A DNA stretch of 62,577 bases, the filler included. It is 11 parts of 11 records of this genome, joined end to end, with 100 filler letters (N's around TTAATTAATTAA, not from the genome) between each part and the next. Parts side by side here need not be neighbours in the genome. Positions count along the whole stretch, not along the records: positions 7,025 to 19,133 come from SRR15195285_3103; 10 more parts are not named here. One strand, given 5' to 3'. Positions 3,522 to 59,363 of this stretch are shown one piece after another. Made by a program: the position numbers and the translations under genes. Below the pieces are notes generated by a model. The model was not told the origin of the DNA, did not search any database, and worked only from the letters and a program-made list of their open reading frames with translations. Each line of letters begins with the position of its first letter. Position 1 is the first letter of the stretch.

Positions 3522-3621
3522 NNNNNNNNNNNNNNNNNNNNNNNNNNNNNNNNNNNNNNNNNNNNTTAATTAATTAANNNNNNNNNNNNNNNNNNNNNNN
3601 NNNNNNNNNNNNNNNNNNNNN
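3522..3621. other. Artificial contig-join spacer (44N-TTAATTAATTAA-44N)
   Basis: Identical 100-nt spacer with stops in all frames. It recurs at 6925-7024, 19134-19233, 24178-24277, 27445-27544, 34394-34493, 38380-38479, 47603-47702, 53444-53543 and 59264-59363. Confidence 0.99.
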
Positions 3622-4762: not shown

Positions 4763-6924
4763 TCACGGGTCGTCCCGAGGTGGTGGCGGGATCCCTTCTG
4801 TGGGTCCATCAACTGTGGAGCGATCAGCAGTCCTTGGCAGGTATTGAATCAGCAGCGCAATCGTTTGTGCATCTTTGAGCACCATCGTAAGTTCTGCGGC
4901 CGGCCGATGGATCAGCGTCGGGGCTAGAACCTTGCCCAAATTGATCCCATTCATATAAGTCGTGTCCTCTGCGTCCGCAACTTGCTGCAGCAACGCAATG
5001 ATCGATCTCGCAAACGGTTTGTGCGTGAACTTGTTGAAGAATGCCTGGACCTCTGCTCGAACGTGCTCCTTGCTGTGTTGGCGGTTGTACAAGTCTGCGA
5101 TCGCCTCAGATGCACTGAGTAGCTTCTCGGGAATCACAGGAGTCTGCTCAACCATCGTGTATAGCCATCGTTTGAGTACCCCAGTCAGAACATGCACGTC
5201 GTGCTCATGTGACAACACGTGTCTGATCGCTGGCAACGAGTGCTGGGACCCCAGACGGCTCAGCTGGTCCTCCAGCGCCTGCACCTCAACGAGCGCCCCA
5301 CTCTCCCGAAAAAGTCCGGGCACGGCGAAAGCTTGCAGCTCGAACAGCCTGTTCGAAATTGCGGTGACCACCTGCGGCGCTATCGATGTGTCTTGTGCCC
5401 AGCGTATGGGGGCGTCCAGCGTCTGCCTCACCTGGTCCTTTGAACGCCTACTTGGCACCTCTCCTTTGTGTTCACCACGTCTGATTTGCGGTTGATTCGC
5501 CGCGAAGATGCTATCTTCATGATATGAGTTCGAAGCTTCCGGGTGAGACTTTGCGAAGCCGCTCCCATCGTTTCGGTTGTGCCTGGAGTAACTTCGCGGA
5601 AGCGTCTTGGCCGAGGCCTTATCAGCCTTCGGTTGGACGTTGCTGGCCGAGTAGTTCACAGGCATCTCGACAGGTCTACTCGATCGAGCCGCTAGATGAC
5701 TACTTGACAGGTTCCCACGAGGTAGTGTGCCTGTGCCACTTGTCTGCTGCGGTTGCAGTGGATCAGAGCCCTTAAAAAGGCTCACTTTCCCGAGGCTGAC
5801 TGCTCGAGAGTCAAGCGCTCTCACCTTGCTGGCAACCTTCATCGCCTGCTGGTGTTCGTTGGTTCTGCCACGAAACACGAGGCCAAGATTCAGCAACACT
5901 TCCGCCTGCTTTCGTATGTCGCCAAATGATGTAGAAAGACGCTGCGCTTTGTGCAGCTCATCTTTGGACCCCCGCAGTTCCTGGTATGTCTGTGCGCGGT
6001 GTGCCATTGCCAAACCTTTCAGGCTGATAGCTTCAGTGGGGTCCGTTCCAAGATGGGTACAGCCTTCGATCGCGGTCTCAAGAGAGGCCAACACGGCGTC
6101 AAACTCGTTTCCTGCAATCACACGTGAGTGAAGCCTAGAGTTATTCCTCCTATGACCTTTGCATTGACTTAATAGCTTGGAAACGTCAAGACTTGGGTCA
6201 AGTTGTCGTATATAGCCTATCAATCGCAGACTCGAGACGAATTCGCCAATGTCTATATGCATCATCGCAGCTTTTTGGAGAAACTGTATTCTGTGACAAG
6301 TGTCCATCGCCTTTGACACGAAGCACCAGCAACCGAGTGCGTCAGCAAGCATGGCGAGGCACAGCCCACAACCGGCCACCTTGTCCGTGCGTGCCACTCT
6401 CGCGTGGTGCCGTCGGTACTTGACAAATCGTCGACATGCTGTGAATATACCGAATGCCAGCCGATATTCCAATATCGTGTCATAAAGCCGCATATACTGT
6501 TCCCCAGATCCGGTCTGAGGCTGCACGAAATTAAGCGCTGCAACACGCAGTGCCCCCGCCGCCGCAGCAAAATCTTCCGTACTGAGAAAGCGTTTCGCTG
6601 CAAGTATATTTTGCAGCGCGTCTGCGCCGTGGTCCAAAGTAAGCACCGGGCCGTTTGCAAGCTGAGGCATTTCTACCAACCTTTTCGCAAGACTCTCTTG
6701 CTGTTGCAGCCGCTCATTATGTCTATGGAACTCTTCGCGGAATGCTTGGTTTGAATTGGCAGACCTCCCCACTGCTCCAGTACCATCGAGTTGGGCTTGG
6801 ATTCGGTCTTGGTCTGCATGCATGAATTTCCACATCTCACGAAACTCGTGGAAGTCCATTTCAGTGTCGCCCCCTGCATACTGCTCAAGCGCAACCATCG
6901 CCATCTCTTCAGCATCCTCGCCAT
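4763..6924 (-). CDS. RhoGAP-domain protein with N-terminal EF-hand-like motif and helical/TPR-like region (5' partial)
   Basis: C-terminal RhoGAP motifs: PGLFRESG (Arg finger), DVHVLTGVLKRWL, MNGINLGKVLAPTL. EF-like GGDTEMDFHEFREMW near the N-terminus. Frame is open to the contig edge. Confidence 0.8.
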
Positions 6925-8067
6925 NNNNNNNNNNNNNNNNNNNNNNNNNNNNNNNNNNNNNNNNNNNNTTAATTAATTAANNNNNNNNNNNNNNNNNNNN
7001 NNNNNNNNNNNNNNNNNNNNNNNNCGCTTGGTATATCGAGAACTCACTGAGAAATAGCGTTCACTCCGGTTCTGAATGTATACTGAATGTTACCATTGGT
7101 AGAATACTGTACGTGTAGATGTAGTGCTACCGTATTGTGTGTCCGGGTACACACAATTTATCGATAGTGTACACACTGGCCTACAGTACTAGATCTATTC
7201 ATAGTACGTACAGTACTGTATTGGCCTGCAGACGGTACCGGTACACGCACTCACACGCCGGCGGTGGGTCTGCTCTCATGCTCTGCCCGCTCTCCGCGAT
7301 GGGTGAGTCACTTCCGGTTTCTCACCACGCCCGGATCCACGCGGCATACTAGCTAGTAGTAGGATCCTACTATTGATAGATCTATTACATAGTACAACGT
7401 CATTATTGTAATGCACGCATGTCCATACTAGCTAGTAGATAAAACTACTACATAGTACAGTACCATTCATACAATTCAGTATACAATTTAGTAGTAGTAT
7501 AGTACAGCTGTACAGCTGTATGGGTTCGATTTTTGGTGTTGAGGAAGACGTCTTCTCGCTGCGTCCATTCAGGGGCCATTCAACGGTGACTCGAGTGACT
7601 ACGCCACCGTTTGCGCGCGCGGCTGCCTGCCTGCTCGCGCTGTGGGGTGACTCGCGCGCGCGCGGAACGTCGTAACCCCAGTATAGCGGCGAGCGCAGAC
7701 GGCAGTTGCGTTAGGCAACTGTTGTCCCCGGCCGGGGACGGTGCAGATAGAGGTGCAGCTGGCCTCTCTCTGGAGAGGTGCGATTAGCGAGGTGCCAGTT
7801 GATCCGTCCCGACGTCTCTGCGCCGGCGAATCACAGTGGGTGTAGGCAGTATGGCCGCGCGCCGCGGTAGGCCGTAGGCAGCGGCGGTTGTTCGATAACT
7901 GCGTATATAGAACGCAGCAGGGGCTGTAGTGGCTGGGGTAGCATGAGCGCTGGCCGCCGATGCTCCGGAGGTGTGGCGAGATCCCTAGGTAGTGATCTGC
8001 CCGGTGGCTGCGCGGCCATGGCACTGCGCGAGGCGGTCGTTGCGGCAGCCACGAGCTAGCGCCCGGC

Positions 8068-11000
8068 ATGTGCAAGGTTGTGGTCAAGCTATGCCTGTAC
8101 GGCTTCAATGTGGCCGTGTTTCTGGGCTGCCTGGCCGTGCTGGCAGTGCAGATCTTCGGAACTTCGGAAGGCCTGACGAGTATGGGCATCGTCAGCCCAG
8201 AGCTGGTGGTACTGGGCATCACGCTGGTCTGTCTGTGGGTGCTGTCCATCGTCGGGCTCGTCGGGGCGTGGAAAAGACGGGGCAGGACCCTGCGGATGTA
8301 AGGCAGCTGTCCGTTCAGCAGCTGGTGCTGGCACATCGTTGAATCCACTTGCGCTGACATCTGCCTGGGTCGCTGCGCGCAGGTACGCCTTCATGCTGCT
8401 GGTGCTGATTGTAGCGCAGATGTCGATCTTATGGGAGGTTTACCGCAACCTGGACTCTACGTTCACGGACCAGGTTGCACAGGTGCTCAACGGCCTGTGT
8501 TACGCTAGTGCAGAAGCAGCCACAGCTTCGGAAGCTGCTGGCTCGGTAGCTACGGAGCTGGCACAGGCTGCGGACGATGGCGCATCTGGGCAGAATATTT
8601 CCTGGGCTCCCCCTGGCCTGGCAGATTCTGGAATAGACGTCCCGCTGGCAACAGCGAACGATACGGTCGCTGCGTTAGACGATCAAGCATTCCGTGCAGT
8701 TGCGTCAGTTGTCGAGCAGAGCAGCCAAGCTCTGCGAGAATTGTGCGAGTGCACCGCGCTGAGCGTGCCTCGTCACTGTATATCGGAGTGGGTTGCTCGC
8801 CAGTGGAAGTATGCCTTGGGGTTAATAGGGCTCCTGTTCGCGTTCGAGGGCTTGTGCGCCATCTTGGCATGGTCGTTCGTGGAGGAGCTAGACCACGACA
8901 GGCTGGAAGCGAAGCAGCAGAAGAAGGAGAGGCGGCAGCAGAAGCCCAACGGTAAGGTGCGGAAAGCTAACAAAGCGCCGGGTTGGGGAGTTGTTTCGCA
9001 GTCACTGCAAACGATCACCACGCTTAGTGAGCCTGTGCTCAACAAGGCTCAGCACGAGGTGCGATCTCGTATTGGACAGTCACATTCGCTGCTAGCGCAC
9101 AGCGGTCGTCGTTGAAGAAATAGTTGACTGTGCTGTGTGTTGGGTTTGCTCAGACGGCGCTCCTAACCTCGACATGGTATTTCGAAAGCACAGTGCTCTT
9201 CGCCTGTCTGATTACGTTCCTCGTACTGGCCTTGCAGAGCAAGACCGTTCCACCTAGCGCGACACTACAGACCGTTATCAACATAGGAGAGTTGTTTTTC
9301 ACGCTCTTCTTGACAGTGGAGACCTTCATCCAGCTTGCGTTCAACATGACTCGCACAGAACGAGCACGCATAATGCGCGGCAAAATGCCGTGGCTGGTGA
9401 TGGATTTGGTGGCGCTAGTTTCGTCCTGGGGATATCTCGTGGCGCCATCGAAGGCTTTCTCGATCGGACGGGTACTGCGGGTACTGCGTCCAATCCACAC
9501 CCTGCGGATGCTACCAGATATTGACGAGATACTGCAGACTCTTGCCGAGGCGATGCCGCTCTTTGCAGACACGTGCCTACTCATTACTTTTCTCCTGATG
9601 GCATATAGTCTCATCTGCATGAGTCTTTGGAGTGGCGCACTCAGTCACCAGTGCGCACTGGAGCCTCCGCAGAGTTTTAGCGGGAACTTGTCACTGGGAG
9701 CTGGCCCGAGGCTCTCGAGCGCGAATGCAGTGACCAGCGCATCCAATTACACCGATGATACTGTGACGTCGTCTGTAATGTCAGTATATGTGACATACGA
9801 AGATCTGATTGAGTGTCCGGCGTGTCTCAAGTGTCCAACAGACGACGTCACCGGTGAAGCGTGGTGCAGGGAGCTGACTTCGCCAAGATTTGTTCGCTCG
9901 GAAGACTTCGGATTTTCTGGGTTCAACTGGTTCGTTCAGGCTATGTTAACCATGTTTGTGCAAATGACCGGTGACGGAGGAATGCAGGACATAGCGTTCG
10001 CGCTGGAAGACTCCCAGGCAATTCTCTCCCAAACTAGCTGGTTGCTGATGATGACTGCAGTATTGATATTGACGTTGCTGGCCCTGAACCTATTTTTAGC
10101 CGTTTGCTGCTCGGCATTTGATGACGTGCACGACCACATCAATTCGAAGATGCAGAATGCAATCCAGAACGAGCAGCACACCGTCGCTGTCACCCTGACG
10201 CGCACCGACGCCATCACGTTTCCAGATATTCTGGGCACCATTTCGAGTGCGGCGCAACAGGCGAAGCAATCGAATGCGAGCATAGCACTGCGTCTGAACG
10301 AAACGTCCGGAGCGAACAGTCACATCGAGTACAATTTAGAAGTTGAAAAAATTGACTGGACTGGGAGATCAAGTGTTGCCGGGTGCCGCAATTGCGCGAA
10401 AGGCTTAGTGCATTCAAGGTGCTTCAACGTGGTGCTAAATCTAGCTGTCTTGATGAACACTTTGGCTCTGATGGCCAACCACCACGGTATGCCCCCCGAC
10501 TGGGCTCCAAAAATTCTACTGGTTGAGTCGATCTGTGTGCTCATATACTGGTTTGAGTTGGCCGCGAAGATTCTCGGCCTTGGTATGAGCCTGTACTGGA
10601 AGAAGGCTGTTCACCGTCTCGACGTGTTTATTCTAGCTAGTGCATCATCTGGAATCTTTGCGCAAGCACTGGTTGTGGGGGCTGAGATGATTGGGTCAGA
10701 CGCAGCAGGACATGTCGTGTTAGCCCACCTGCACTCTTTCTCATCGATGAGGTTTGTGAGACTGTTGCGAGTGCTGCAGATGAGCCGATGGGTGTACTCA
10801 CACAAAGAGATGAGAAACCTGCTTGAAACTGTATTTGCTAGTTGGAAGCCGGTTGTCCTAGTAAGCATTTTTACGGTCTTTTCGACCGTTATGTTTGCAG
10901 TGATATCGATGCACCTATTAGGTGGATCGCTCGGGCCTAGCGCAAGAATTGACGACTACCCTCGTAGAAACGTCGAGACTTTCTGGCACGCGCTCTCGGT

Positions 11001-14000
11001 GAGCTTTCAGTACTTGACAGGTGACAACTGGAGCGAGGTGATGTACTGGTATATGGAACATACCGATCTACCTCCGTATGGTGTTGCGCTGTACATGATA
11101 GTGCAGTTTGTTTGGATGCGTTGCATCATGTTTTCGCTGTTCGTTGCTGTGCTACTCGTTAACTTTTCCATCGATGAAGACGACAAGCTTCCGCGGCAGA
11201 AAGTAAAGTTTGACGAGGAAGAACGGGAAGCTTTGGAGGCTGGTCTCAGAAGTGGAAGTGATATGTTGCGTGCGCTTCAATACAAAGGTACAGGAGCAGT
11301 ACCTGCAGAGCAGTCGCGCGAACGAACACCTCTGCAGATACTTCAGGCATACAATCTTGCCTCACCGATCGGAAGTCCGAGTCTAGCATTGATGAACGGC
11401 GACGGCTGCACTGTGAAACTTAACAATTTATCTGCGTCTTTGGAGTCTGAAGAGTCACTTGAACAGGCTCTGAAGCCGGTTGGTCCAGTACGGGCCATCA
11501 GTATTCGTGTCCGGCCAGTACAAGAGAAGTTAGAACACAATATATCGTCCTGGGCACTGGTGACGTTTGTGGAGTCTGCTGACGCGGGGCGCTTGTTGGC
11601 TGGCAACGCAAACGAAGCTTTGGCAGCTCTCGGGCTTGAGGTCCAGAAATTTGACATGAGCAAGGCGCAAACCAGTCAGAGTGGAATGCAGTTCACAGGC
11701 CAGCAGCATTTGGCAAAACTTGCAGCCCTTATGCCGGAGCAGAGAGATTCATCTGCCGACGTGGATTACACACGTCGGTCGCTGAATCTTTTAGATACAA
11801 CACATCCTGTGAGGCTCTTCTGTGCAACGGTCGAAAGTCATCCCTGGTACCACCGTGTCGTCATGTCCATCATACTGCTCAGCTGTGTCCTAGTCGCGTT
11901 CGAATCTCCTTCGATGATGGCTAAGTATGGCAATTTTTTCAATGCTTACAACGTGCTGATTCTATGTGTGTTGGCTGCACAAATGCTATTGGAGATGATT
12001 GTCCATGGTGTACTGAAACCGTCAGGCCCAACGGTCCCTTACCTACAAAATAGGCTGCATCGCTTGGACGTTTCTGTGATTGTGGTTGTTGTAGCAACGT
12101 ACGTGTTGCCTGCAGTCGGCCTTGTCCAGGGTGTAGCTACCCGTGTAACTGGATTAATTCGAGTGATGGCACCGATGCTGTTGCTACTGCGTAACAACAG
12201 TCTCAGACGGCTGATAAGCACGTTTGCCCACTCAGTGCCAGCTGTTGGCGCAATCATGCTGATATTGACACTACTTCTACTTGTGTTTAGTGTGATTGGT
12301 GTCGAGTATTTCGCTGGAGGACTTTACCGCTGTGTATATGTGAACGACATCTACTCGACAGTACCCGCTGTCGAGGTTCAGAATGCAACTGAATGTTTAG
12401 CCCGCGATGATACTGAGTGGAGAAATCCAAGCTGGAACTTTGATAACGTCTTCTCGGCATTGGTTGCCTTGTTTTACGTTCTTGTCAATGCCGGGTGGCT
12501 CGAGATTGCGGAGAGCACTTTCGATATCACTGGCGTGGACAAGATACCAGCACAAGACAGCAATCTGGGTTCCTGGGTTTATTTTTTGACCTTTCATTTG
12601 ATTTTTACGTTCTTCATGCTCAACTTGTTTATCGGCGTCTTGAGCTCTGCCTTTGGTGAAAAGAGTGGGTCAAATCTTACCACTAATCTTCAGCGTCGAT
12701 GGATCCGAGTCCTTGCGATGTTGAAATCTTTTCGGGTGACTGCTCCACCAATCCCGAAGCCTGCTGTGGGGTCGAAGTTGTGGAAGCTACGCAGAAGGTG
12801 CTGGAATATCGCGGAAGATGCCAATGCCGAACGAATCTGGACTTTCGTCATTTTAGTGAATGTGGCGATGTTGACATTCGATCATTATCCTGCAATCCCT
12901 GGTTGGGCTGATATGATGCAGTGGGCAAATTTTGCCTGCCTCATAACATTTACTGTAGAAGTGTGTGTCAAAATACTCGGCTACGGAATCGCAGGATTTC
13001 TGCAAGATGGATGGCGAAAAATGGACTTGGTGGTTGTGATTGGATCTTGGGCATCACGGATCTTTGGTCTGCAGGCCGGTGTAGCTGTCGTGCGTGCGTT
13101 TCGGACCGTACGGCTTGTGCTGCTCGTCAAACGAATGCCAGGATTGATGGCTCTTATTAACACAATTATTGCTTGTATCGGCCCTGCAATCAGGTAAGCT
13201 CCATTTGACTGCCTTTCATCATCTTGTTACCGTGGTGGTTGAGCACAGCTGGCTGTCTGCACACTGATATCTTGTTGGTGCAGCATTGCGGGCATCAGCT
13301 TCCTTGTATTCTACATCTTTGCAGTGATTGGCATGAAGCTCTTCGGCGATACTCCTACTGACATGCCTTACTACAACGATCAAAACAACTTCAAAACATT
13401 CTTCAGTTCGTTGAAGCTACTATTCCAGCTCATTAATGGACAAGACATCAAAGGGATGATTAACGATCTTGGCATAGGCACTGAACTAGGATGGATGCCT
13501 CCGTTCCTTTATCTTGCTTCTTTTTTCTTCTTGACCGGTGCGCTACCAGCAACGAATTTGCAAAACTCTGTTTTTGAGAAAGAGGTTTTGCAAATTCGTC
13601 CGTCGCCTTTGTCAAATTTATCATTTGCACCTTTTCTCGCCATTTCCTAAATTCCTGCCCATTCTCACTTTTCGCTATTGTCGAATGTTGCAGTGTTCAT
13701 TTGCATGAATCTGTTCGTTGTAACTGTGCTGGACAACTTCGCCAACCTATGTAGTATGGACGACGTTCAATTCGGGCCTGATGACATCGATGGATATGCA
13801 GAAGTATGGCAAAGCCTGACATACGAACGTATCTGGAGGATCGATCCAGGTGCTGTTGGTATCGAAACTGACGAAGCAATGCTTGCGAATATGTCCGAGC
13901 AAGATGTTGCGGACATTTATGCTCGAAAACGAGAGCGTGAGGCTTATCTACGACTACACAACTGGGCGGAGTTCCGTCGACTGTTTCCGCTGCCCATCTA

Positions 14001-17000
14001 CATTGATCAGCACAACCCGATGTTTCGCGGATGGCTTCATCGTCCGAATGCGTTAGACTGGCTCACAGCGAGTGACCAACGATTTTTCTGGATCGATATG
14101 AGCTGTACCGAGGCAGATGCGATTGGTCACTTGTGTCTCAACTGGTACAGCGAAGGCTCCACGCTGCGTGAATTGGATCGCCTGCATGAAAAAAATCAGC
14201 TGGTCATCAACCGGGTGCAAATCAAGAAACTCGTTACCGCAGTTCCCGATCCGAAAGCAGCATCACTGGTTGCTGTTGCCAAGGACGACACTGCTGAAAC
14301 TGGAAAGATAGACAAGATGGAAGCGGCACTAAGTGGCCGCGGGTGGCTTGTTGCTCTTGCGAATGCACAACTCAAATATCCAGGCAACACCATGGCTGCT
14401 GCCTTCAGCTTGGCTTGGTATGATGATGTCCTGGGCGATATGACGCTGGCAGGCAACGCCGACCCAACACTTTCGAGCCCCAAGATCGGAGTTTCTATGG
14501 AAGATGAAGAAAGCTTGTCACCTCTCCAAGCTCGTCTTCGCCAATGCATACAGTCTGGCATCACTATGCCGCACTCGACTTCAGACAGCACACCGGGCTG
14601 CTATGCATGCGAACCAGATGATTACACTGACTTTTGGCCACTCTTCAGTCGCGTGATAGCTCGCGTTCATGGATTAGATGATGATTTTGTTCAGTCTGAT
14701 CCGATGTGCTGGCCCGAAGAGGCAGATGATGTTCAGCCGAACAACGGCACAGACGACCAGCAAACAGTGCCATCCACACAGAAAAAGAAGAAAGGGAAGA
14801 AGAACAAAAAGGATAAAAAAGGCAAGAGCTCGGGAAACAAGAAGAGAGCGAAAGAACAAGGAGCCAAAGGCAGTGAGGTGGAGGCAAAGGAGATGGTTCA
14901 CTCCGTGCCTGGCGACAAGACGCAGTCGTGGAATCTATCCAAAGTAGATCGGGCGAGCTTAGCAACACCCGAGAATCTCGACTTCGGATTCGATTTATCA
15001 TCAGCTGGGTTAGCTCCAATGCCGGTTCGATTGTCAGTTGTTCGCAATCTGATCGGATTCAACCTGATTGCCACTATGCAGAAGGATGATCGGCTAACGC
15101 TAGAAGATCTGGTTTGTGACGCAATCAGGCACATTATGCGCAAGACCCAATTTCGTGGCCGTTACGTTTCGCTCACCCCAGGTCACCCCGATGAAATCCG
15201 CCAATCAGAGCAAGAGGAGCTTGCTGAAGCAGGACTGATGTTTCCTACGGCCTCAGAGAACCCAGAAATGGAGGCAGGTGGGTTACTGACGGACTGGCCG
15301 TACGGGCGTGGATGCTGGATAAGCAAGGACGAACGTATGACGATATGGGTAGGATACGAGGATCACATTTCCATAAACGCTGGTGGTATGCACGAAACTG
15401 ATCTTGCAGAGCTGTTTGATCGGCTTGTTGCAGTCGTTAATGTGGTTGAGAGCACAGAATCTATCGTGTTTCGTCACGAACCAATTCGTTGTGGCTACGT
15501 GACATCATCTTTGTTCAACTGTGGAAGTGGCATGTGGGCAGAGGCAGCAATTTGTCTCCCAACTCTAACTGTCAACGGGGCTGGCCGTGTCCGCGAAGTC
15601 ATCAAGGGACTGGGCCTGGACCTTGTTGTGCTGCCGAAAGATGCAAACAGCGCAACAGACGCGTGGGAGTTGCAAGGTTACGTTGATTCTCTTGTCAGCG
15701 ACCCAGAAGTAGGTAGCAGAGGCGCCGTACGAGTCGCGGTGAGACGGACATTCGGAGTCACTGAAGCGTTCATTGTTTGCCAGTTGTGCGTCGGGCTTGT
15801 AAGTTTGTGGAAGTCTGAAGAGGTAGCAGCCGCAACCAGCAGCACAGATCAGGAGATTGAAACGATATGCTGTGGGTTGCGCAACGCACAAGAAGCGGCG
15901 GGGGCAAAGAGTGAAAAGCAAGCACTGGCCGATGCTCTTCGAGCTGCTGCTAACGCAGAGTTATCTGACAATTCAATTGAGATCGAGGTCATCCCAATTG
16001 ATGCGCCCGCTTTGCAACGAGACGCAGCAGAGATTGAGCTGGAAACGATTACGGATGCAACGGTCCTGAGCACACCAGTGAAAATGCCTGATGGTATGAC
16101 TCGTCACGGTTTCGTCTTGACCGTATTCGACACCGAAGGCGTCAACACCGCCGGCGTTGACACCAAAGCTGGCCATGTGAAGTCCGGTGGTCCTGTTGAA
16201 GAAAAATTCGAGTTCTACCTCGATACAACAGCCGAGCGAGATACATGGTTTGACGCACTAGCAGCTGCTCGTACTGGTCAGTACACAGGCGAGGCAAAAC
16301 AGGCAGTACTCCATATGCCAAACGTGGGATGGGGCAAAGCGTACGCTGCACGTCACTGCACTCTGTCCGGGTCTGGTTTGGTAATGTCAAGCAACGATGG
16401 CACAACCACAATGCGGCTTGTGGCAGAGTCAGAAGAGGAGAAAGCTGCCTGGGCAGTCGCACTGCAGTGGCTACAAAACAACTGTGAAGGGAGCCCGCCT
16501 CGAAACGATCCCAGGTATGTGCAAGCAGCATTGCCTAGGTAGCTGCAATGTGCAATTCCGCTGACCGGCTTCAGTTGCAAGTGCGTCTAACCTAAATTTG
16601 CGTCTGCGCTGAGCAGAATGTACCCAGGTGGAATTCCGCCAAAACCGCTGGACCAGCACGAGTGGGCTAAGATCAGGAGTCAGGTCGGACTGCTGGACAT
16701 TCCTTACAGCAGCCTCAGAAAGATGCTTCGCTTGCTACAGAACCGTGGCATTTTGGATGTTAACGACGCCTTTTCAAGAAGTTTTGTACTCTACGCTAGT
16801 TTCCAAATGGAAATGCACGCGTACCGGACCGCTGCAACGGACGCAGCGCAGCGGGCCTCCGGAATCGAAAGGGCAATACAAGCAATCGACGGCCTGAATT
16901 TCACGAAAGTCTTGGAACAACTGTGCCTGGTGTCATGCGGCAGAGCAAACTCGCTGTCGTATGCAGAGCTGTGTAAATCCTATAAGCTAGACTCGGAGTT

Positions 17001-17373
17001 TATTGCGATGCAAACCATCTTGGCTGGAGTGAGCGCGTGGGTTGCACTGCGTGCTCATGACAAGTGGGGTAAGAGGGAGAGCCCGCATCCGACGAACCCC
17101 ATATGGCGACGCAACCCAGCCGCATACCGCGCTGGGGTACGCGCCATGCGTAACCAGAGGTTGCGTGTACTCGGAGACCTCAGGCGGGCCATCGCAAAGG
17201 ATCAGCCCCAAGTGGATTTAGACGCCTTTCAGGCGCGCGAAGGACAACGCCGGACAGTGGACCGTGCAGCTCAGGATTTTTCGGCCAAACGAGAAACAGA
17301 TTTCGGTGCGGCGACATTTCCGAATCCGTTGAACGATATGTCCACAGCATCGGCCAACGCTGTCGACAAGTAG
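8068..17373 (+). CDS. Four-domain voltage-gated Ca/Na-type cation channel fused to an N-terminal tetraspanin and C-terminal PH and ATP:guanido phosphotransferase-like domains (6 exons, ~2925 aa)
   Basis: Exons 8068-8297, 8383-9058, 9154-13193, 13284-13537, 13694-16514, 16617-17373. All five introns are GT..AG and phase-matched; spliced length is 8778 nt. S4 segments include RVLRVLRPIHTLR, RFVRLLRVLQMSR and RAFRTVRLVLLVKR. Four pore loops; S6 motifs LNLFLAV, FSLFVAVLLVNF, MLNLFIGVL, MNLFVVTVLDNF. Phosphagen-kinase motifs GCYACEPDDY, DWPYGRG, WVGYEDH. Confidence 0.85.
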
Positions 17374-18831: not shown

Positions 18832-19380
18832 CTCGTGTTGACACCTCAGAATGAGGGTGGTCAGCTGGTCACCTGCACAGTCTATCTAGCGCTGTGAGAA
18901 AACAATCGACTCTAGCAGACACAGCCCAGGGCGACGGTGCTGCCACTCTTCCTGAGGCACGACCCTCGTATTAACTTGTCAGCAGCTGGGCCGGGACGGA
19001 CAGTGGGCTGAATAAAGCTCGCTCTAGTAGTACGTAGTTTTGCTGCTAGCCAGCAACTGATGATCGCGAGAGCACTCACACGCCCGCGCGCGCCGCGGAT
19101 TCACTCGCAATTCATGTCATGTGCGGCGGGGCANNNNNNNNNNNNNNNNNNNNNNNNNNNNNNNNNNNNNNNNNNNNTTAATTAATTAANNNNNNNNNNN
19201 NNNNNNNNNNNNNNNNNNNNNNNNNNNNNNNNNGTATTTATTGGTAGAGTGTTCTACTACAGCACTCTACGCTACTGTACTAGATCTAGTATATTCGATA
19301 CAGCATATGAATCCAGCCGTATTTTGTATATGGAGAGCGTGGCAGCGGCGCGGCGGCGCCGGCGGGCCCTGCCTCGCGAG

Positions 19381-19394: not shown

Positions 19395-19478
19395 AACACT
19401 CAACGAATAGAAGGCCTGTGGCGGGCTACATATACGTTAGTCGCACAGATCTAGCTGGCCCCATACTTGTCAGTGAAT

Positions 19479-21896
19479 ATGCGAATGCTCATGGTTGCGG
19501 CCATGATAATGTCCGCTGCTACACGGTCCGAGGCTGCCAGCCGCAGCCTCGTGGTCACGTCGCTCGATAAGTCGGTCTCTGTTGCTGTCGACCCTCAGAC
19601 CGGCAAGATCAGTTCGCTGACATCGCGCGGCACGCGGCACGGTATTGTGGGCGGCGTCACCTTGCAAGGAACGAGACCGTTGGAAATCTCGGCCAAGTCG
19701 GTCGGGGAGGGCGGTGAGAGCGTACTCATCACGCAAATTGTGTGCATTCCAGCCGCGGACGTGCCATGCAGCTCCAAGCAGGCCAAAGTGAACAGCCTGT
19801 TTACGCCCCGCGCCACCTCGGTTGGATGGACGCTCAATATCTCTTCGCCTGTCTACTCGACCGACCCTACACCACTTTGGACAGCACCTGTGGTGACAAA
19901 TATCACGTTCGCCAACTCTGGCGACAAGCAGTTCTGGGCGCCCTGGAGCCGTGGCGAGACCAAAGACCCTCTGACGCCATCTGACGGTGGCTTCTCCTGG
20001 TGGACGGGAGAGTATCTGCTCGGGGCGCAGGTGATGCCAGCCTCTGACCACGTGATTCATGAGATGGCGACCGTGCTCGACCCAACCCATGATGTCGGCG
20101 TGTCGTTCATCCCGTCTCCAGCTAATCCTCCAGCCCATCCAACTTGGCTCAACATCTCCGGTGCCGGGATGGACTGCCACACTGCAGATGCTTGCTCTGG
20201 CCCAGGCTGGTTCGCGGTGTCGCGGCACCACTTGCGTTTTGGCGACGGAGCTCGTCCACACATCTTTGATACCGACATCGTTGCTCACGAGGCATGCTGG
20301 CGCGCCGCCCTCGGCTGGTCGGTCCGAACCCACGCAGAGTACTGGGAGCCAGTGAATCCAGTCATAAAGGAGATCGAAGGCTTGGGATCTTACAGCTCGT
20401 ATCTTGGCGACCTGACAGACCCGAAGTTCAAAGAAATGGATTACGCTCTCAACTGGGACCTATCAGGGCGTTTCTTCCCTTACGCGGGACAGTTCCTTCC
20501 ACCGGTCAAGAGGGGTGAAATCTGGCTCAACGATGGCGAAGGTACACAGCCACGTGCAAACGTGAGTTTCGAGATCATCGACGAGTTCTACGGCAGGATA
20601 CAGCGCCAAGGATTTGCCACGCTGTCATACTTCAACGTGTTTGAATACGGAGAAAATATCTGCGGAAACTACCCTGGCATGGCACCACTCTGCAATCGAT
20701 CCGGAGAGCCGACTTTCGACGCCTTGGAGAGGCAGCAGGGGCACACAGCATACCCCGTTCCGTCTTCCGCAGACCCCTGGGCCAACTCGACTTGGTTCAT
20801 GCTTGAAAACTTTCCCAAGAGTCTCGTCACTGCCTACGACTGCGGTGGCCACAAAAGTGGTTGCAGTAGTACTGGGGACGCAACAGCGGCGAGTAACGAG
20901 AGCGCTCGGCGACAGATTGGAACTTGGCAGGGTGGTGTTGTGGTTGATCCGGTCGATCCGCAGCTAAAGGCGCACTTTGTGGCGCAGCTGGAGCGCAAGT
21001 ACACGGAAATCAGCAACTTTCAGGGCTTGGTGGTGGACCGTTCAGATTGGAACACTGTATACAATTACGACTTCGATGATGGTGCGAGTTTCATTGGCAA
21101 TTCCACCGCTCATCTCAGCCAATACTCTTACTTGGACACAATTGCGGCACTACGCGATGTCATGAAGAACAAGGAGGGTGACATGCTTCACAACCAGACA
21201 GTAATGCTGCAGAATGCACTGGGATTCACACAGCTCAGCTTGATGAAAGATTTTGACGGCACCTTCTCCGAAGGTGGTGTGGTCAACTCAGTCGGGCTCC
21301 TTGGAGCACGGAGCACAGCCATCTTGTGGACGTACAATACGAAGGAGTGCTGCAGCAGCTTGAGCGTTGCAGATGAGTACTTTCAGCGCCGGCTCCACCT
21401 CAAGGTCTTTCCGATGGCTCCATTCCCGCAGGCTGACCACTGCATCGCGTCTGACCCGAAGGCGGAGGCGATGTACATCACTTACGGTGGAATGTTCAGT
21501 GCACTGCGTGGGGCAAAATACTTGCTCCGCCCACATGCCATCAACATGACAAAGCCTGCGCTGGCTAATGTCTACGAACTGCCACACGCGCCAGGACTGG
21601 CGACGCTTTGGTCGGTAATGCTCGGTGGAAATCAGTCCTCGGGGGTCCTTTCGGTTGCTTTCCTGCCCACAGCAACTACTGTTGGAGCAACTGCACCAGG
21701 TCTCGATGCTAACCGATTTGAGGTGATGCACCCGGGAGCGCACGATTGGAAGCCACTCCCTGCGACTGCTGCGCACCTTGCAGATGGAGGTGGTGCAGCG
21801 AAGCTGACAGTGCCGCTGAAACGTGGGTGCGCACTAGTTCGACTCGTAGTCGATTCACCTGATGGGAAGCCACTACTACAGCAACTGGGACTGTGA
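19479..21896 (+). CDS. Secreted glycoside-hydrolase-like protein (unclassified)
   Basis: Intronless ~805 aa with signal peptide MRMLMVAAMIMSAATRSEA. Beta-rich N-terminal part, aromatic/Asp-rich central barrel-like part (YALNWDLSGRFFPY, LSYFNVFEYG, GLVVDRSDW) and beta C-terminal part, i.e. a GH-D-clan-like layout. Family not identified. Confidence 0.5.
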   Translation: MRMLMVAAMIMSAATRSEAASRSLVVTSLDKSVSVAVDPQTGKISSLTSRGTRHGIVGGVTLQGTRPLEISAKSVGEGGESVLITQIVCIPAADVPCSSKQAKVNSLFTPRATSVGWTLNISSPVYSTDPTPLWTAPVVTNITFANSGDKQFWAPWSRGETKDPLTPSDGGFSWWTGEYLLGAQVMPASDHVIHEMATVLDPTHDVGVSFIPSPANPPAHPTWLNISGAGMDCHTADACSGPGWFAVSRHHLRFGDGARPHIFDTDIVAHEACWRAALGWSVRTHAEYWEPVNPVIKEIEGLGSYSSYLGDLTDPKFKEMDYALNWDLSGRFFPYAGQFLPPVKRGEIWLNDGEGTQPRANVSFEIIDEFYGRIQRQGFATLSYFNVFEYGENICGNYPGMAPLCNRSGEPTFDALERQQGHTAYPVPSSADPWANSTWFMLENFPKSLVTAYDCGGHKSGCSSTGDATAASNESARRQIGTWQGGVVVDPVDPQLKAHFVAQLERKYTEISNFQGLVVDRSDWNTVYNYDFDDGASFIGNSTAHLSQYSYLDTIAALRDVMKNKEGDMLHNQTVMLQNALGFTQLSLMKDFDGTFSEGGVVNSVGLLGARSTAILWTYNTKECCSSLSVADEYFQRRLHLKVFPMAPFPQADHCIASDPKAEAMYITYGGMFSALRGAKYLLRPHAINMTKPALANVYELPHAPGLATLWSVMLGGNQSSGVLSVAFLPTATTVGATAPGLDANRFEVMHPGAHDWKPLPATAAHLADGGGAAKLTVPLKRGCALVRLVVDSPDGKPLLQQLGL

Positions 21897-23978: not shown

Positions 23979-24468
23979 GGCAGCAGATGGCAGTCGGCGA
24001 CCGCTTGGCTCTCCAAGCTCCGTCTACACTCGCTTGCGTGCTGCATGCTACTAGTACATTATGCATCACGCTGGCGCGCGCGGGCGTACATACATATACG
24101 TACCGGTAGCCGTAGGAACTTCCTACTAGTACCTATTCAAAAATATAGAGTGCTACGCCCGAGGCGAGGCCCCAGATNNNNNNNNNNNNNNNNNNNNNNN
24201 NNNNNNNNNNNNNNNNNNNNNTTAATTAATTAANNNNNNNNNNNNNNNNNNNNNNNNNNNNNNNNNNNNNNNNNNNNCACAGGGACGGGTGGGAACCACG
24301 CAGGTGATCGAGAGGTCTCTGGAGTATGATGTACCATACAGGGAGCAGCCTGGCAGCGGCGGCGGCGACCGTGACGACGACGGCGGCGGCGGCGGTGGCG
24401 GTGGGGGTTGTGGAGCGTGGCGTTAGGGACGTCGGGCGCGCCCAGAAGAGCACTCGCGTTGCAGACAG

Positions 24469-27444: not shown

Positions 27445-28131
27445 NNNNNNNNNNNNNNNNNNNNNNNNNNNNNNNNNNNNNNNNNNNNTTAATTAATTAA
27501 NNNNNNNNNNNNNNNNNNNNNNNNNNNNNNNNNNNNNNNNNNNNGTGACCTGAAATGATGATTCTGCAACATGGAGGGGGCCTGCTGCTCTTCGATGATC
27601 CGGTCTGGCATTTGTCGAATTTGAGGCATGATGATGTCACATCGGGACGTTGTTGAAACGGGATGCATGCAGTGCTCGCGATTCGTTGGGCGCGTGGCGG
27701 CGAAGGGCCTCAGCGCGAGCTTCTCCTCTGGACCGGGCACCTGTCTACCGAGCTGGTACTGACTGGGCGATGAAGACGCACACTATCGCGGCGCGAAGTG
27801 GCGGTCGTCGGAGAGAGCAGAGCTGTTGCGCCTCGCAGCTTGTGCATCACTGCCGTACGACCTCCAGCCGCCGCTCTACTTCTCCACCACGCTGCAGCAC
27901 GGGCTGGTCAGTCCTTCATCGCGCCAAGCATGCTGGGCCAGCACAGCCAGCTGTGCGAGGCAGCAGCAGCGCAGTGAGTGCAGCCGAACAATCGAAGCGC
28001 CACGGCCCTGCTCAAGGTACACGGAGCCCGGGTGCGAACGGCCAATGGGCTTGCCTAACCAGTGCCCAGTCGGTACCGAATGCTCCGCTGGAGCTGGCGC
28101 GCAGCGCCCTCGAAGTGTCTCGTCTCCTCCG

Positions 28132-30930
28132 ATGGCGGCAGCCAAGAAAGGGATCGAGATGCTTCGCACCAGCCGGCTTACAAACAAGTTCAAGGACAAG
28201 GTCAAGTTCGCCAAGGCCGATCAGTTTGGCGGCAGGGCGGTTGGCGGCCACAGGCCGCTCAACAAGGAGCTCTATCGGACCGTGCCGTCATGCGACTACC
28301 TGGCACCGGACACGAAGCAGGAGGAGGCTTACCACCGCTCGTTCACTCCGAGTATGCGAACTCGCAGACATCTGTTCATCTGGTTGCTGTACACGCTCCT
28401 CGCAGTCGTTGTTGCGGTCGTAGTCCTGGCGATACTGGCGGCATGCGACACGATCATGAAATACCGGGCAGAAGTAACTGAGGAGCAGCTGAGAAACAAG
28501 GGCCTGGCAACGGCATGGATGGTCTGGACGGGCTCCAGCATGGCGCTGTGCCTCGCCGCGTGCGTGACCGTACTGTGGCAGCCTGCCGCCGCCTCTTCTG
28601 GTATCACCGGGCTGATTGCGTACATGAACGGCGTCATGCCACTAGGGGGCAAGTCGACGATCACAGGGAAAATGACGGATTATCAGGCAAGCCAGACGCT
28701 GTTTGCAAAAATCATCGGCATGACGCTGTCCGTCCCGTCCGGCCTCGCGATCGGTCCCGAAGGCCCAATCATCCATATTTCCGCAATGCTGGGGCACTGT
28801 ACAGTGCAGTGTATCCAATCCCTTTCGCGCAAGTGCCTGCCGAAGAGGTTTCACTTCAGCCTTCGGCCTGGCGAGGACCGTGACTTCATGGCTACTGGTG
28901 CAGCATGTGGCATATGTGTCGCATTCAATGCGCCGTTGGCTGGTTGCCTGTTCGTGATTGAGGAGGCCGCAATCGCGATCACCACAGAGCACTTAGACTA
29001 CACGTTCTTTGCCACCATCATTGCATACCTGGTCGTACTATCTGTTGCTCACCCAGACGACGGGTTCACCAAGTTCAAGCAAGTTACAGGCCCTTTCTGC
29101 ACCGTCTTCGATGGCTTCGACATGCTCATGTTCGTCGCCGTAGCTGTGACGGGTGGCCTTAGCGGAGCATTGTTCAATTGTTTCGCAAAAAAACTGGACC
29201 TTTTCCGGGCTAAGCACATCAGACACAGTGCTTGCCGGAAGATGTCTGAGGTCGCAGTGCTCACGGTAGTGACCGGCACTGCGGCTGTATTTCTTCCAGC
29301 ATTCTTCAGTTGCCAACACCCTACCCGGTCACTTCTGATGCAGGACAGCATTGGTTGCCTTTCCCAGGAAGATGCCTTTCAAATATCTCACGGCTACGTC
29401 TCGCATGATGCCATGGCTCAACTTGTCGGCAATACAACGGCTGCACAGCTGCATGTTGCCGACAGGCTGGCACAGCATCGGGTTCGCGATGATTTGCAAG
29501 ATGAACCGTGGAATGACGTTGTCTGGATTGACAACGCCGATGATGAACAAACCATACACTTGCACTACCAGCACTCGTACACTTGCAACGCTACAGAGTA
29601 CAGCAGTATGTCCATGCTCTGGCTCAATGGTGGAGTGAAAGGTGTCAAAGTGTTGATGCAGCGAGGATTTCCGCACATGATCAGCTGGCAGGTGCTGCTC
29701 ACTTTCTTCGTGGTATACTTTGTGCTGACTGTGTACACTGCTGGCGTGAGCGTTCCAGCCGGCTTGATCGTTCCGATGCTGCTGCTAGGTGGATCATATG
29801 GAAGAGCAACTGGGCTATTAGGTATACAGCTGAAGAAGGGCATGTGCGAGCCGTTGCGTGACCTCAGTGGCGACGTAACAGATGCATTTTATTGGTCAAC
29901 AATTTATCGCTGGGTAGGCCTAGAGTGTCGATTACCAGACCCAGGGATGTACGCAGTAGTCGGCATGGCCTCGTTTCTCGGTGGTTCTACTCGTATCACC
30001 ATGATGCTGGCTACAGTCATCGTAGAACTTACGGATGACGCGTCGCTAATTGCTCCAGTCGGAGTCGCAAGTATCATTTCGATGATTGTTGGCAATGTCT
30101 TCAACCATGGACTCTATCACGCACTTATTCCCGTACTCAGCCTACCGTTCCTCAATTCAGAGCCAGCAGATGTTATGTGGCTGGTGAACGTCGTGGATGT
30201 TATGACCAAGGATGTCGTTGTGCTGAGTAGGACATCTTCACGGCACAGCGTTCTTGATATCCTTCGCAAGTGTGACTCTGGTGAGCTCTCTCATCATGCT
30301 TTTCCAGTCGTCGACTGTCACATGAAGCAACGACGACTGCGCGGCATAATTACCTTGGAAAACCTCCGACTGGCAGCAAAGGGGCAGAACACCGTGCAGG
30401 GCGCCAACGGGCGGACGCGGCGATTTTCTTTGACTGGCCAAGGGGACCAGATCAACCTGCTCGATTTTGCAGATCGTAGCCCCATAACGACTGTGCCGCA
30501 TGCAAAAGTCGCAAGAGCGTTCGAACTGTTCCGCAAGATGGGCATGCGGCATTTGTGCGTTTGTGACATTGACGGGATCCTGGTTGGCTTGATTACACGA
30601 AAGAATCTGATGACGTTTGAGCTGGCAGATAATATTCGGCTACACAAAGCGGAGGCAATGTTGCGCGGCTGGGCGAGCCGATGGCGAGCTGCACGTAAGC
30701 GGCGCCAGAAGCAGGAAGCGGTTGCTGCAACCGCCGCAACGATTTGCATCCGACAGATCCCACACGACTGTACCTCCGCGGAGCTCCCTCCAGCATTGGA
30801 GAAGTCTTCGAACGTGCTGCCACGCTCCAAAGCCACTGGCATATCGAGATTACCTCCGATCATTCTGCCAGGGATTGCTCGCACTGAATCTACTGAACGC
30901 GACTATATGGCCAACGGTACCCTGCCTTGA
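28132..30930 (+). CDS. CLC: CLC chloride channel/transporter (CLC-6/7-like) with two CBS domains
   Basis: Motifs SSGITG (GSGIP equivalent), GPEGP (gating Glu), FNAPLAGCLFVIEE (proton Glu), PAGLIVP and GLYH. CBS pair includes HHAFPVVD and MGMRHLCV. First plausible ATG is 28132. Confidence 0.93.
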   Translation: MAAAKKGIEMLRTSRLTNKFKDKVKFAKADQFGGRAVGGHRPLNKELYRTVPSCDYLAPDTKQEEAYHRSFTPSMRTRRHLFIWLLYTLLAVVVAVVVLAILAACDTIMKYRAEVTEEQLRNKGLATAWMVWTGSSMALCLAACVTVLWQPAAASSGITGLIAYMNGVMPLGGKSTITGKMTDYQASQTLFAKIIGMTLSVPSGLAIGPEGPIIHISAMLGHCTVQCIQSLSRKCLPKRFHFSLRPGEDRDFMATGAACGICVAFNAPLAGCLFVIEEAAIAITTEHLDYTFFATIIAYLVVLSVAHPDDGFTKFKQVTGPFCTVFDGFDMLMFVAVAVTGGLSGALFNCFAKKLDLFRAKHIRHSACRKMSEVAVLTVVTGTAAVFLPAFFSCQHPTRSLLMQDSIGCLSQEDAFQISHGYVSHDAMAQLVGNTTAAQLHVADRLAQHRVRDDLQDEPWNDVVWIDNADDEQTIHLHYQHSYTCNATEYSSMSMLWLNGGVKGVKVLMQRGFPHMISWQVLLTFFVVYFVLTVYTAGVSVPAGLIVPMLLLGGSYGRATGLLGIQLKKGMCEPLRDLSGDVTDAFYWSTIYRWVGLECRLPDPGMYAVVGMASFLGGSTRITMMLATVIVELTDDASLIAPVGVASIISMIVGNVFNHGLYHALIPVLSLPFLNSEPADVMWLVNVVDVMTKDVVVLSRTSSRHSVLDILRKCDSGELSHHAFPVVDCHMKQRRLRGIITLENLRLAAKGQNTVQGANGRTRRFSLTGQGDQINLLDFADRSPITTVPHAKVARAFELFRKMGMRHLCVCDIDGILVGLITRKNLMTFELADNIRLHKAEAMLRGWASRWRAARKRRQKQEAVAATAATICIRQIPHDCTSAELPPALEKSSNVLPRSKATGISRLPPIILPGIARTESTERDYMANGTLP

Positions 30931-34159: not shown

Positions 34160-34572
34160 CGGACCGTTGGGCCTGCGCTGACGTACGGTCTGCAGCAGGC
34201 CTCCTGTGTCTCAGCGCTCCGAGCTACTGCCGGCACTATTGATCAGGCTCTGCCGCCACTGCTGCTGGTGCTCGTGCAAATTTATTTAGGGCGGACGTAC
34301 CGGTAGGTTGTCGTCTCGGGAGACGGAGTCCCCGCCAACCATAATGATTCCAACACGGAGCCTACACCGCTCCAGCATGCACTCCAACTGTCGNNNNNNN
34401 NNNNNNNNNNNNNNNNNNNNNNNNNNNNNNNNNNNNNTTAATTAATTAANNNNNNNNNNNNNNNNNNNNNNNNNNNNNNNNNNNNNNNNNNNNGACACAT
34501 CAACATACACAACGAAACGTCCAAGAGCCGGAAGCTGGGTCGAGGCTGCGCCAAGCGCCTCAGCAGCGGCGG

Positions 34573-38379: not shown

Positions 38380-38535
38380 NNNNNNNNNNNNNNNNNNNNN
38401 NNNNNNNNNNNNNNNNNNNNNNNTTAATTAATTAANNNNNNNNNNNNNNNNNNNNNNNNNNNNNNNNNNNNNNNNNNNNACTCCTCAAGAATCCAACCCA
38501 GCCTGTGACGAGGACCGTGGGGGGGCCCTGTGGGG

Positions 38536-47602: not shown

Positions 47603-47702
47603 NNNNNNNNNNNNNNNNNNNNNNNNNNNNNNNNNNNNNNNNNNNNTTAATTAATTAANNNNNNNNNNNNNNNNNNNNNNNNNNNNNNNNNNNNNNNNNN
47701 NN

Positions 47703-52200: not shown

Positions 52201-53443
52201 TTGCTTTTGTCATCGGGCGCGCTAGGCGCGACCACACTAGTACTGGAGTCACTGAACAATCCCTTGGCAAGTCCCGCTAGGGTTGCCGCCTCTGCCACCC
52301 ACAAACGGTTCGCCATCGTAGTGAGGTCACTCAGCGCTGAATGGTGCTCCTCGGAAACGTCCGGTACGTTGGCACCCGCTCGTTTCTCAGCGAAGCACTC
52401 CTGCAGCATCTTTTCTCGTGCATCCTTCGAGGATTCTTGCAGCGCTGTGCTTCTTTTCCATAAGTCCACAAAAGGTGGATGCCCTTGCGAAGCGCTCACA
52501 TTCTGGGCCGAGACTACGGCCCGCCGCAAGTCTTGCACGACCGTTGCAGTTGCAGCCTCAACAGCCGCGTTTTCCTTGTGACAAAGCTGCACGTCCACTT
52601 CGCAATGACGCAGCGTCGCTGCCATACGGTACGTGTCCTGCCTCGGTTTATTGTCCTTTAAGAGGAACAACCGGACCGGGTCGATACCGAACTCCTTCAC
52701 CTGAGCGTCACAGAATTTGTCGAATGAAGTCTCGTTCCAGCCCCTGTCTTGCGACGGACCTGGAGGAATCTTGGCTTCACGGAACTCGGTGCTGAAGTAC
52801 GCCATGCACGCCTCTTGAAAGAAAGTGTACATCTGAGTCCATTCGACGTTGTACTTGGAGCGCATGTAGTCGCGCGCGCTATGAAAAGTTGTATGTCCTG
52901 CCTGCTTCAGACTTTCGCGGTAGTTGGCTGGATTGTGTACCCCCTCGAGAAGGAAGTAGTCGATGATGAGACTGCCCAATGCTGAGTCGGGCTTCGCAAG
53001 CTCAATGGCGAGGCGCCCAGTCACCGGTGCCGATGAAACGGCAGTGGATGCAACCGTCTTTGCTTGCTGCAGCGCAGCGGCAGGAACTGGAGGGGGTACT
53101 GCTGGAGGGGGGGCTGGATCCGGAGTCGAAGCCGGCGCGGCGGGCTTACTGAATGCGAAGGCTGGTGCCGCAGCCGCTCCCACACTTGCGATACTGCTGC
53201 CCGTCGCTGGTGAAGAGAAAGTCGGCGCAAGCGCGCTCGCGACGCCTGAGACCGGAGCTGAAGCTGCCGCAGGTTTGGTCGAAAACGGTTTCACGGGTGG
53301 CTTCAAGGAGAAGCCGCCACCGGCACTGGACTTCGTTTCATCGCCTCCTGCTTCAGTGAGAGACGCGCCGAGGCTTCCAAACCCGAACGCCCCACCGGCT
53401 CCACCTGGCACCACGTCCCCAGATGAGCCACTCACCCCAGATG
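49242..53443 (-). CDS. FG-repeat nucleoporin, Nup214/Nup159-like (5' partial)
   Basis: Dense FG/GFG/PAFG repeats over the C-terminal third and a central coiled coil. An in-frame stop-free intron lies at 50130-50261 (GTACGC..ACAG). Ends GGGHTGFRG. Confidence 0.75.
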
Positions 53444-59134: not shown

Positions 59135-59363
59135 CGCGCGGACGACCGGATTCGCACTAGTTCCTTCGCGCGCGCGCGCACTACCGTGGCGGCCGGGGCA
59201 CACCGGATTTTTACAATTGAAATAATGACCCTAACGGGTCCACTCGTGCAGGCAGCCACACCCNNNNNNNNNNNNNNNNNNNNNNNNNNNNNNNNNNNNN
59301 NNNNNNNTTAATTAATTAANNNNNNNNNNNNNNNNNNNNNNNNNNNNNNNNNNNNNNNNNNNN

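Follow-up and report, generated by a model that had tools for sequence, protein, structure and literature searches.

Tetraspanins are free proteins of ~25 kDa with four transmembrane (TM) helices, and reviews name a Cys-Cys-Gly (CCG) signature as a defining motif (PMC8761850, in the sections accessible to us). One of them has a documented partnership with a calcium channel: free TSPAN-13 binds domain IV of CaV2.2 through its first two helices and alters the coupling of voltage sensor to pore (PMC3646272, likewise in its accessible part). The Cav gamma/TARP proteins, of claudin type, are four-helix companions of channels too, with the large loop, containing β strands, between TM1 and TM2 (accessible text of PMC8761850). 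Where four-domain channels are known to have auxiliary subunits, these are separate proteins; the action of tetraspanins on calcium channels is poorly understood. Here we describe a locus in a stretch of DNA of 62,577 nucleotides, filler included, which we call the window and along which all coordinates count. The region 8068-17373 on the plus strand is likely to be one gene for one polypeptide, in which a tetraspanin-type module is followed by a linker, a Cav-like channel, a kinase-like domain and a C-terminal region.

The window is eukaryotic in character, with long exons and short GT..AG introns. The gene model has six exons and, when spliced by coordinates, 2925 codons with zero internal stops. 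It starts at ATG 8068-8070, with an in-frame stop 72 nt 5' of the ATG. The module and its tail take up 302 codons as far as 9058, in two exons (8068-8297 and 8383-9058). The features of the model are given below, EC1 and EC2 being the first and second outer (extracellular) loops.

8068..8297, plus strand: exon 1, with the ATG, a cytosolic N-tail of 7 aa, TM1 (~8089-8157, with L-Y-G-F-N), the outer loop, TM2 (~8197-8271) and the basic inner loop
8298..8382, plus strand: intron 1, 85 nt, GTAAGG...GCGCAG, phase 2, inside the TM2-TM3 inner loop
8383..9058, plus strand: exon 2, with TM3 (to ~8440), EC2 (8441-8809; Cys codons at 8498, 8744, 8750 and 8777; sequons N148 and N169), TM4 (8810-8878) and the basic cytosolic linker with its conserved pre-S1 segment (8879-9058)
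9059..9153, plus strand: proposed intron 2, 95 nt, GTGCGA...GCTCAG, phase 0
9154..13193, plus strand: exon 3, channel domain I S1 to domain IV S5
13194..13283, plus strand: intron 3, 90 nt, GTAAGC...GTGCAG; splicing leaves an open frame, collinear with the relative P0010
13284..13537, plus strand: exon 4, domain IV pore loop and start of S6; Pfam Ion_trans E 4.9e-08
13538..13693, plus strand: intron 4, 156 nt, GTGCGC...TTGCAG
13694..16514, plus strand: exon 5, end of domain IV S6, cytosolic region, phosphagen kinase-like N and C domains, weak PH-like stretch
16515..16616, plus strand: intron 5, 102 nt, GTATGT...GAGCAG; it holds two in-frame stops and corresponds to a 34-residue gap in the P0010 alignment
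16617..17373, plus strand: exon 6, conserved C-terminal region, with the stop codon ending at 17373

A preliminary description of this DNA, made from its letters, had reported four TM segments with tetraspanin spacing at the head of a channel gene. Hydropathy (Kyte-Doolittle, 19-residue windows, threshold 1.5) does place hydrophobic segments at ~aa 8-30, 44-68, 76-96 and 220-242, but the TM2-TM3 string becomes continuous only when intron 1, then overlooked, is spliced out. Exon 1 ends two bases into the Met77 codon, and aa 41-113 of P0010 match 8071-8298 (tblastn). Removal of the intron yields ...LRM-YAFMLL..., which is uninterrupted in the open reading frames (ORFs) of P0009, P0010, P0015, P0017 and P0018, and exon 2 starts to be conserved from R-Y-A-F onward, at AG|G. 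The proposed intron 2, which begins with GT, ends with AG, measures 95 nt and leads in phase 0 into domain I S1, is as first described; read through unspliced, the same interval runs to a TGA at 9113-9115. The GTGCG donor of intron 2 is used again by intron 4 (13538), and CAG ends all five introns.

That module and channel are joined in frame is, from comparison with relatives, highly probable. The alignment of the module was searched as a profile against 1.84 billion representatives at a threshold of E <= 1e-3, yielding 12 proteins, and the exon 2 frame by itself has seven close homologues, each an unspliced ORF of genomic style (52-94% identity, E 1.8e-130 to 7.4e-62); because of these two sets of matches the two-exon module frame lies beyond chance. 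In three of the 12 profile matches an uninterrupted ORF spans the module and enters the channel. The fullest is P0010 (2702 aa), in which the module at aa 41-260 precedes four Ion_trans domains and an ATP-gua_Ptrans domain; five proteins of 2701-2702 aa, from five contigs of 12-18 kb, make up its 90% cluster. P0014 (464 aa) covers the outer loop, TM4 and linker and runs into domain I, while P0009 (287 aa; EukProt name Picozoa sp. COSAG02) starts at TM2 and ends a few residues into S1. We take the COSAG assemblies to be single-cell genomes of Picozoa.

When the coordinate-spliced window protein is aligned with these three relatives by MAFFT there are no gaps at either module splice joint, the sequence ...KAQHE-TALLTSTWYFE of the window facing ...KARHE-AVLLTRTWYFE and ...KVRRE-ARMLTDTWYFE. 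P0010 is collinear with the window over 8071-17361 (tblastn). The point at which other homologues lose their similarity also coincides with the donor: P0001-P0007 show near-total identity through HE, followed by V (the GT) and then by unrelated tails of unequal length, and in P0008 and P0011 conservation likewise ends at E followed by V. Among the 12 profile matches it is P0003, P0008 and P0011 that diverge at this E|V boundary; the remaining six stop short of it, being fragments, or, like P0012 and P0013, diverge past TM4. The last 28 residues 5' of the 9059 donor are almost invariant in the alignment of exon 2 homologues. A scan of metagenome contigs produced a sole locus, L001, which has the same layout as the window and differs from it by gaps only in the flank and introns (six in intron 1, three in intron 2, none in 1023 exon bases), though at 94% DNA identity it is too close to be a test of layout conservation. 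A repeat homologue search using the family alignment returned P0011 alone, the candidates being crowded.

The phase-0 intron between module and channel is itself variable in occurrence. The window group has it, and so, at an identical codon boundary, does the distant P0011, whose module is 24% identical to that of P0010 (alignment A4); P0009, P0010 and P0014 are without it. This is read as a presence/absence polymorphism within the family.

The module is probably a divergent member of the tetraspanin superfamily, one that falls below the Pfam cut-off and lacks CCG. Like the tetraspanins (PF00335; CD9, CD81, CD53, Tspan15, uroplakin 1B) it has four helices with termini predicted to be cytosolic, a short first outer loop (EC1, ~13 aa), a basic inner loop of ~7 aa and a large second outer loop (EC2, 123 aa, aa 97-219), predicted to be helical and with four conserved Cys and P-x-x-C. 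Exactly four Cys, as first described, are found in the loop (C116, C198, C200 and C209); they are invariant in an eight-sequence alignment, and at the level of sequence they agree with the two to four Cys pairs and the P-x-x-C(C) of a tetraspanin EC2, the disulfides being predicted. The arrangement C-x-C...P-x-x-C is seen in 17 of 27 sequences, the remainder being fragments or deviating. EC2 also bears two N-x-S/T sequons, N148 and N169, which are invariant.

Residues of the helices correspond to those described for tetraspanins in the accessible part of Kovalenko et al. (2005; PMC1190194). In TM1 the conserved positions are L14-F-G-F-N18 (CD9), Gly25 and Gly32, and the window has L10-Y-G-F-N14 in place of the first group. 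In TM2 they are Gly67, Gly74, Gly77, Gly80 and Ala81, the last three of which are represented by G63, G66 and A67. All five of the TM3 positions (Leu89, F/Y92, Leu96, I/V/L99 and E/Q103) are matched, by L75, Y78, L82, L85 and Q89, as a Leu-Leu-Gln heptad with Tyr and Leu at d, and the spacing from the TM2 Ala to the TM3 Leu is eight residues, as in the published human consensus. The single conserved Glu/Gln of TM4 is E232. The 2925-aa protein has a single occurrence of the strict TM3 pattern, at the expected site, and the matched signature residues are kept in every family member that covers them. The conserved TM residues of tetraspanins, as far as that text gives them, are judged to be present despite four unmatched Gly positions. 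This motif level provides the most specific evidence of tetraspanin kinship; no single test is decisive, and all point the same way.

The preliminary description had also proposed a hidden Markov model search against PF00335. This proved to be the sole Pfam family matched by more than one of 15 members scanned (seven of them, E 3.4e-07 to 0.12), with matches collinear with the family model, although its best score of 30.6 bits stays under the gathering cut-off of 32.1. The window's exons were scanned separately and the relatives with their module uninterrupted; exon 1 of the window alone gives E 0.12. Among matches at E <= 1 for the same 15 members there were none to the claudin/PMP22, L6/TM4SF, MARVEL or CD20 families.

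The channel is more readily placed. Exon 3 contains four Ion_trans stretches (Pfam, E 4.3e-121), and its closest solved relative is Cav3.2 (9ayg_A, E 5.5e-77), followed by Cav1.x at E ~1e-70, Nav at ~1e-50 and NALCN at ~1e-23. S4 of domain I reads R-V-L-R-V-L-R-P-I-H-T-L-R. With four tandem Ion_trans repeats and a positively charged S4, it is classed as a Cav-like four-domain voltage-gated cation channel. It shares the four repeats and the Arg at every third position of domain I S4 with Cav-type channels (T-type Cav3.2, the closest solved, and L-type Cav1.x), but differs from them in the N-terminal 4-TM module, in the C-terminal kinase-like domain and apparently in the filter.

The selectivity-filter positions look like D/D/A/Q (D/E/S/Q in P0010), a by-eye reading of a partial alignment and the sequence, with pore loops at ~9950-9990, 10990-11030, 12450-12490 and 13420-13450. 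So read, the filter differs both from the EEEE/EEDD of calcium channels and from the DEKA of sodium channels.

A phosphagen-kinase-like region lies at ~14518-15750 on the plus strand, inside exon 5, and the same domain is found in P0010. Both Pfam families exceed their cut-offs: ATP-gua_Ptrans (PF00217) at E 3.3e-21 and 76 bits (cut-off 22.4), ATP-gua_PtransN (PF02807) at E 4.3e-08 and 34 bits (cut-off 25.7). The Cys of the C-P-x-N-L-G-T-x-x-R segment of phosphagen kinases is reactive, and the Arg also has a role. In the best solved relative, arginine kinase 4rf6_A (E 1.3e-34), the stretch ...TSCPSNLGTGMRAS... aligns with ...tsslfncgsgmwae... of the window, in which neither the reactive Cys nor the Arg of that segment is retained. 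Because they are replaced by Ser and Trp, the domain appears degenerate and may be a pseudo-kinase. Exon 6 (~250 aa, 16617-17370) aligns with P0010 aa 2370-2678 at 36% identity (tblastn, E 1.8e-60), and no Pfam family was found in it. A weak PH-domain match lies at 16380-16514 (E 0.02).

As to what the module does, we think it most likely to be a permanently attached tetraspanin partner of the channel. Its helix number being even, both ends would lie on the same, cytosolic, side of the membrane, and the module would feed into the cytosolic N-terminus of domain I; for these two reasons the Cys-rich, sequon-bearing loop should face outward, where EC2 would be presented in glycosylated and disulfide-bonded form. 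We infer this orientation from the conserved EC2 sequons and the cytosolic channel N-terminus. The basic linker reported after TM4 is there, with 60 residues (aa 243-302) and 12 K/R to 8 D/E. Because its first half varies in length, from ~30 to ~80 residues across the family, that half may be a flexible tether, while the conserved last ~28 residues, the pre-S1 segment, would run straight into S1. It is conceivable, if tentative, that the module keeps the channel within a patch of membrane, possibly flagellar, that tetraspanins organise. Rather less likely, by analogy with free TSPAN-13 on CaV2.2, it packs against a voltage sensor and tunes the coupling of sensor to pore. The evidence does not separate an organising or targeting role from a gating-modulator role.

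As far as the accessible text describes it, the TSPAN-13/CaV2.2 pair resembles the present case in pairing a tetraspanin with a calcium channel of four domains, but there the partners are separate animal gene products, while here they would form one polypeptide, with the module tethered to domain I. Cav gamma/TARP subunits had been offered as the analogue of a putative tethered auxiliary subunit. That comparison holds for a four-helix membrane protein with cytosolic ends that accompanies a channel, but not for the fold: the TM1-TM2 loop of the module has only ~13 residues, the large loop, predicted to be helical, instead connects TM3 with TM4, and no claudin-type family is among the Pfam matches of the 15 members. 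On the accessible descriptions the analogy is only a loose one, and TSPAN-13 is the closer functional precedent.

Several observations weigh against this account of the locus, and the first group bears on the fusion. RNA was represented by contigs from four of the nine runs that match the region (X1, X2, X3 and X5). None of these contigs joins 9058 to 9154 and they contain zero joints overall; bins 7100-7767 have zero cover. Those found here are unspliced, intron 1 being retained in X3 record 17 (8213-8410) and X5 record 25 (8256-8406) and intron 3 in X3 record 22 (13113-13324). The fusion claim of the preliminary description draws its strong support from comparison, through three contiguous relatives and a gapless joint, and not from RNA. 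Longer exon 2 homologues, of 395-2000 aa, were not found, a weak point given that a complete fused protein is more than 2000 aa long; P0010 and P0014 could derive from contigs of either DNA or RNA; and P0012 and P0013 run past TM4 without a recognisable channel, so that stand-alone or differently interrupted forms may exist. One could accordingly propose two genes, one for a separate 4-TM protein (320 aa) that ends at TGA 9113-9115 and one for a channel with its own transcript, in keeping with the unspliced frame being open to 9115, with the unspliced form of all seven close homologues and with the missing spliced RNA. We consider this very improbable. The RNA-library contigs decide neither splicing nor its absence at 9059, because they contain introns 1 and 3, and unspliced homologues are to be expected because ORF callers do not model introns. 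The channel frame, as had been noted, has no ATG before S1: an in-frame Met does not occur until aa 367 (nt 9346-9348), past S1 and S2, so that a separate channel would lose both of these segments of domain I. The 19-residue read-through tail is unconserved, against nearly invariant residues before the GT; the equivalent interval in L001 has a 3-nt deletion and a different stop, an earlier in-frame TAG; and one continuous ORF crosses the joint in three relatives.

The second group concerns the fused module, which might be a lineage-specific four-helix bundle that has converged on tetraspanin topology without being a homologue. Every Pfam score is under the gathering cut-off, from P0017, the best, through 28.5, 26.7, 23.9, 21.1 and 18.1 (P0010) to 12.4 bits (exon 1 of the window). 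CCG, correctly reported as absent, has 0 occurrences in the module and is found in 0 of 27 sequences examined, C-x-C and then P-R-x-C standing in its place; the first Cys comes early in the loop, and C21, Q28 and L53 replace Gly25, Gly32 and Gly67, with S60 at the place of Gly74, so that TM1 is without its two heptad glycines. The tetraspanin fold combines a cone-shaped TM bundle with an EC2 of five helices; for comparison with it, an AlphaFold model of P0010 aa 1-299 was used (mean predicted local distance difference test (pLDDT) score 68.9; helices 76-87, EC2 partly < 50; helices placed as in the window's hydropathy), the fold of exon 2 alone (mean pLDDT 41.5) being left unused. The six best Foldseek matches of the model are CD53, Tspan15, CD9, CD53, CD81 and CD81, yet at E 0.19-0.45 (TM-scores 0.24-0.43), and in VIA-align the tetraspanins at Z 9.2-10.9 (Tspan15 10.9, with 178 aligned residues and a root-mean-square deviation of 6.1; CD53 9.8; CD9 9.2) do not exceed generic helix bundles (top Z 11.6). 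The language-model feature neighbours of P0015 have tetraspanin clusters in the top three places, at 0.86-0.87, values which below 0.9 are leads only. The sole match of the family profile to PDB sequences is uroplakin 1B, at TM2-TM3 (E 0.076). Convergence nevertheless seems improbable: four independent weak methods rank tetraspanins first and name no other 4-TM family, and the published consensus, so far as accessible, is matched at G77, G80, A81, L89, F/Y92, L96, I/V/L99 and E/Q103 with the right spacing, and also at the TM1 L-x-G-F-N and the TM4 Glu. The tetraspanin label first given to the module is probably right, for a divergent form without CCG, even though the Pfam scores are sub-cut-off and the fold matches not significant. 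It is possible, if on the unlikely side, that a genuine tetraspanin neither contacts nor tunes the channel and is a sorting or anchoring device only, or is cleaved off in the basic linker. The linker is long (60 residues here, ~110 and Gly/Ala-rich in P0009 and P0014), rich in K/R and little conserved over its first half, and the general role of tetraspanins is to organise membranes (PMC8761850, accessible sections). There is no direct counter-evidence, but the second half of the linker, which adjoins S1, is conserved, and the module is kept at 32-45% identity across the family, which implies selection on the module itself.

The tetraspanin-channel fusion is not described in the literature searched (full text, with supplements outside the search). 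By term search of the accessible text without supplements, one survey of four-domain channels has no mention of 'tetraspanin' or 'kinase' (PMC5824947) and another none of 'tetraspanin', 'arginine kinase' or 'guanidino' (PMC6259924); a brown-alga genome preprint, in its accessible part, mentions tetraspanins and Nav/Cav channels only separately. What appears to be new is the domain architecture, the constituent families being already known. It extends the architectures of Cav-like channels at both ends, and offers an initial hint at the function of a gene family of Picozoa-like picoeukaryotes, organisms that have hardly or never been cultured. If correct, it would mark the first fusion of a tetraspanin with a channel seen in nature: a conserved in-frame joint would fix stoichiometry and proximity, offering a direct experimental handle and a genetically fixed 1:1 model of tetraspanin regulation of voltage-gated calcium channels, and the partnership would have arisen outside animals. 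More speculatively, and with some doubt, marine protists including Picozoa might possess a one-polypeptide channel complex in which the tetraspanin, covalently tethered to voltage-sensor domain I, is an obligatory auxiliary subunit that sets gating and/or confines the channel to a flagellar patch, and in which the catalytically altered arginine-kinase domain couples the channel to the local energy or phosphagen state.

By tblastn no second copy of the module is seen in the window, the next-best match having E 0.74. Within exon 5, short contigs from all four runs accumulate to high depth (up to 92x), with loose ends on both sides, over a low-complexity stretch at 14780-14811 that is Lys-rich and A/G-rich; this pile-up is probably cross-mapping from unrelated transcripts. 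Elsewhere the window encodes a CLC chloride channel with CBS domains (27763-30927, plus strand), a weakly TRP-like membrane protein (59366-62263, plus strand, E 1.1e-04) and a RhoGAP protein (4766-6922, minus strand), the last upstream of the fusion gene in window coordinates and divergently oriented. Four long ORFs (19455-21893, 49245-53441, 54161-56227 and 56585-59230) match no Pfam family. Ten sites show two 44-N runs around 12 bases, 880 N in all, several of which interrupt long ORFs:

3522-3621, 6925-7024, 19134-19233, 24178-24277 and 27445-27544
34394-34493, 38380-38479, 47603-47702, 53444-53543 and 59264-59363

This regular pattern looks like masking or scaffolding rather than biology.

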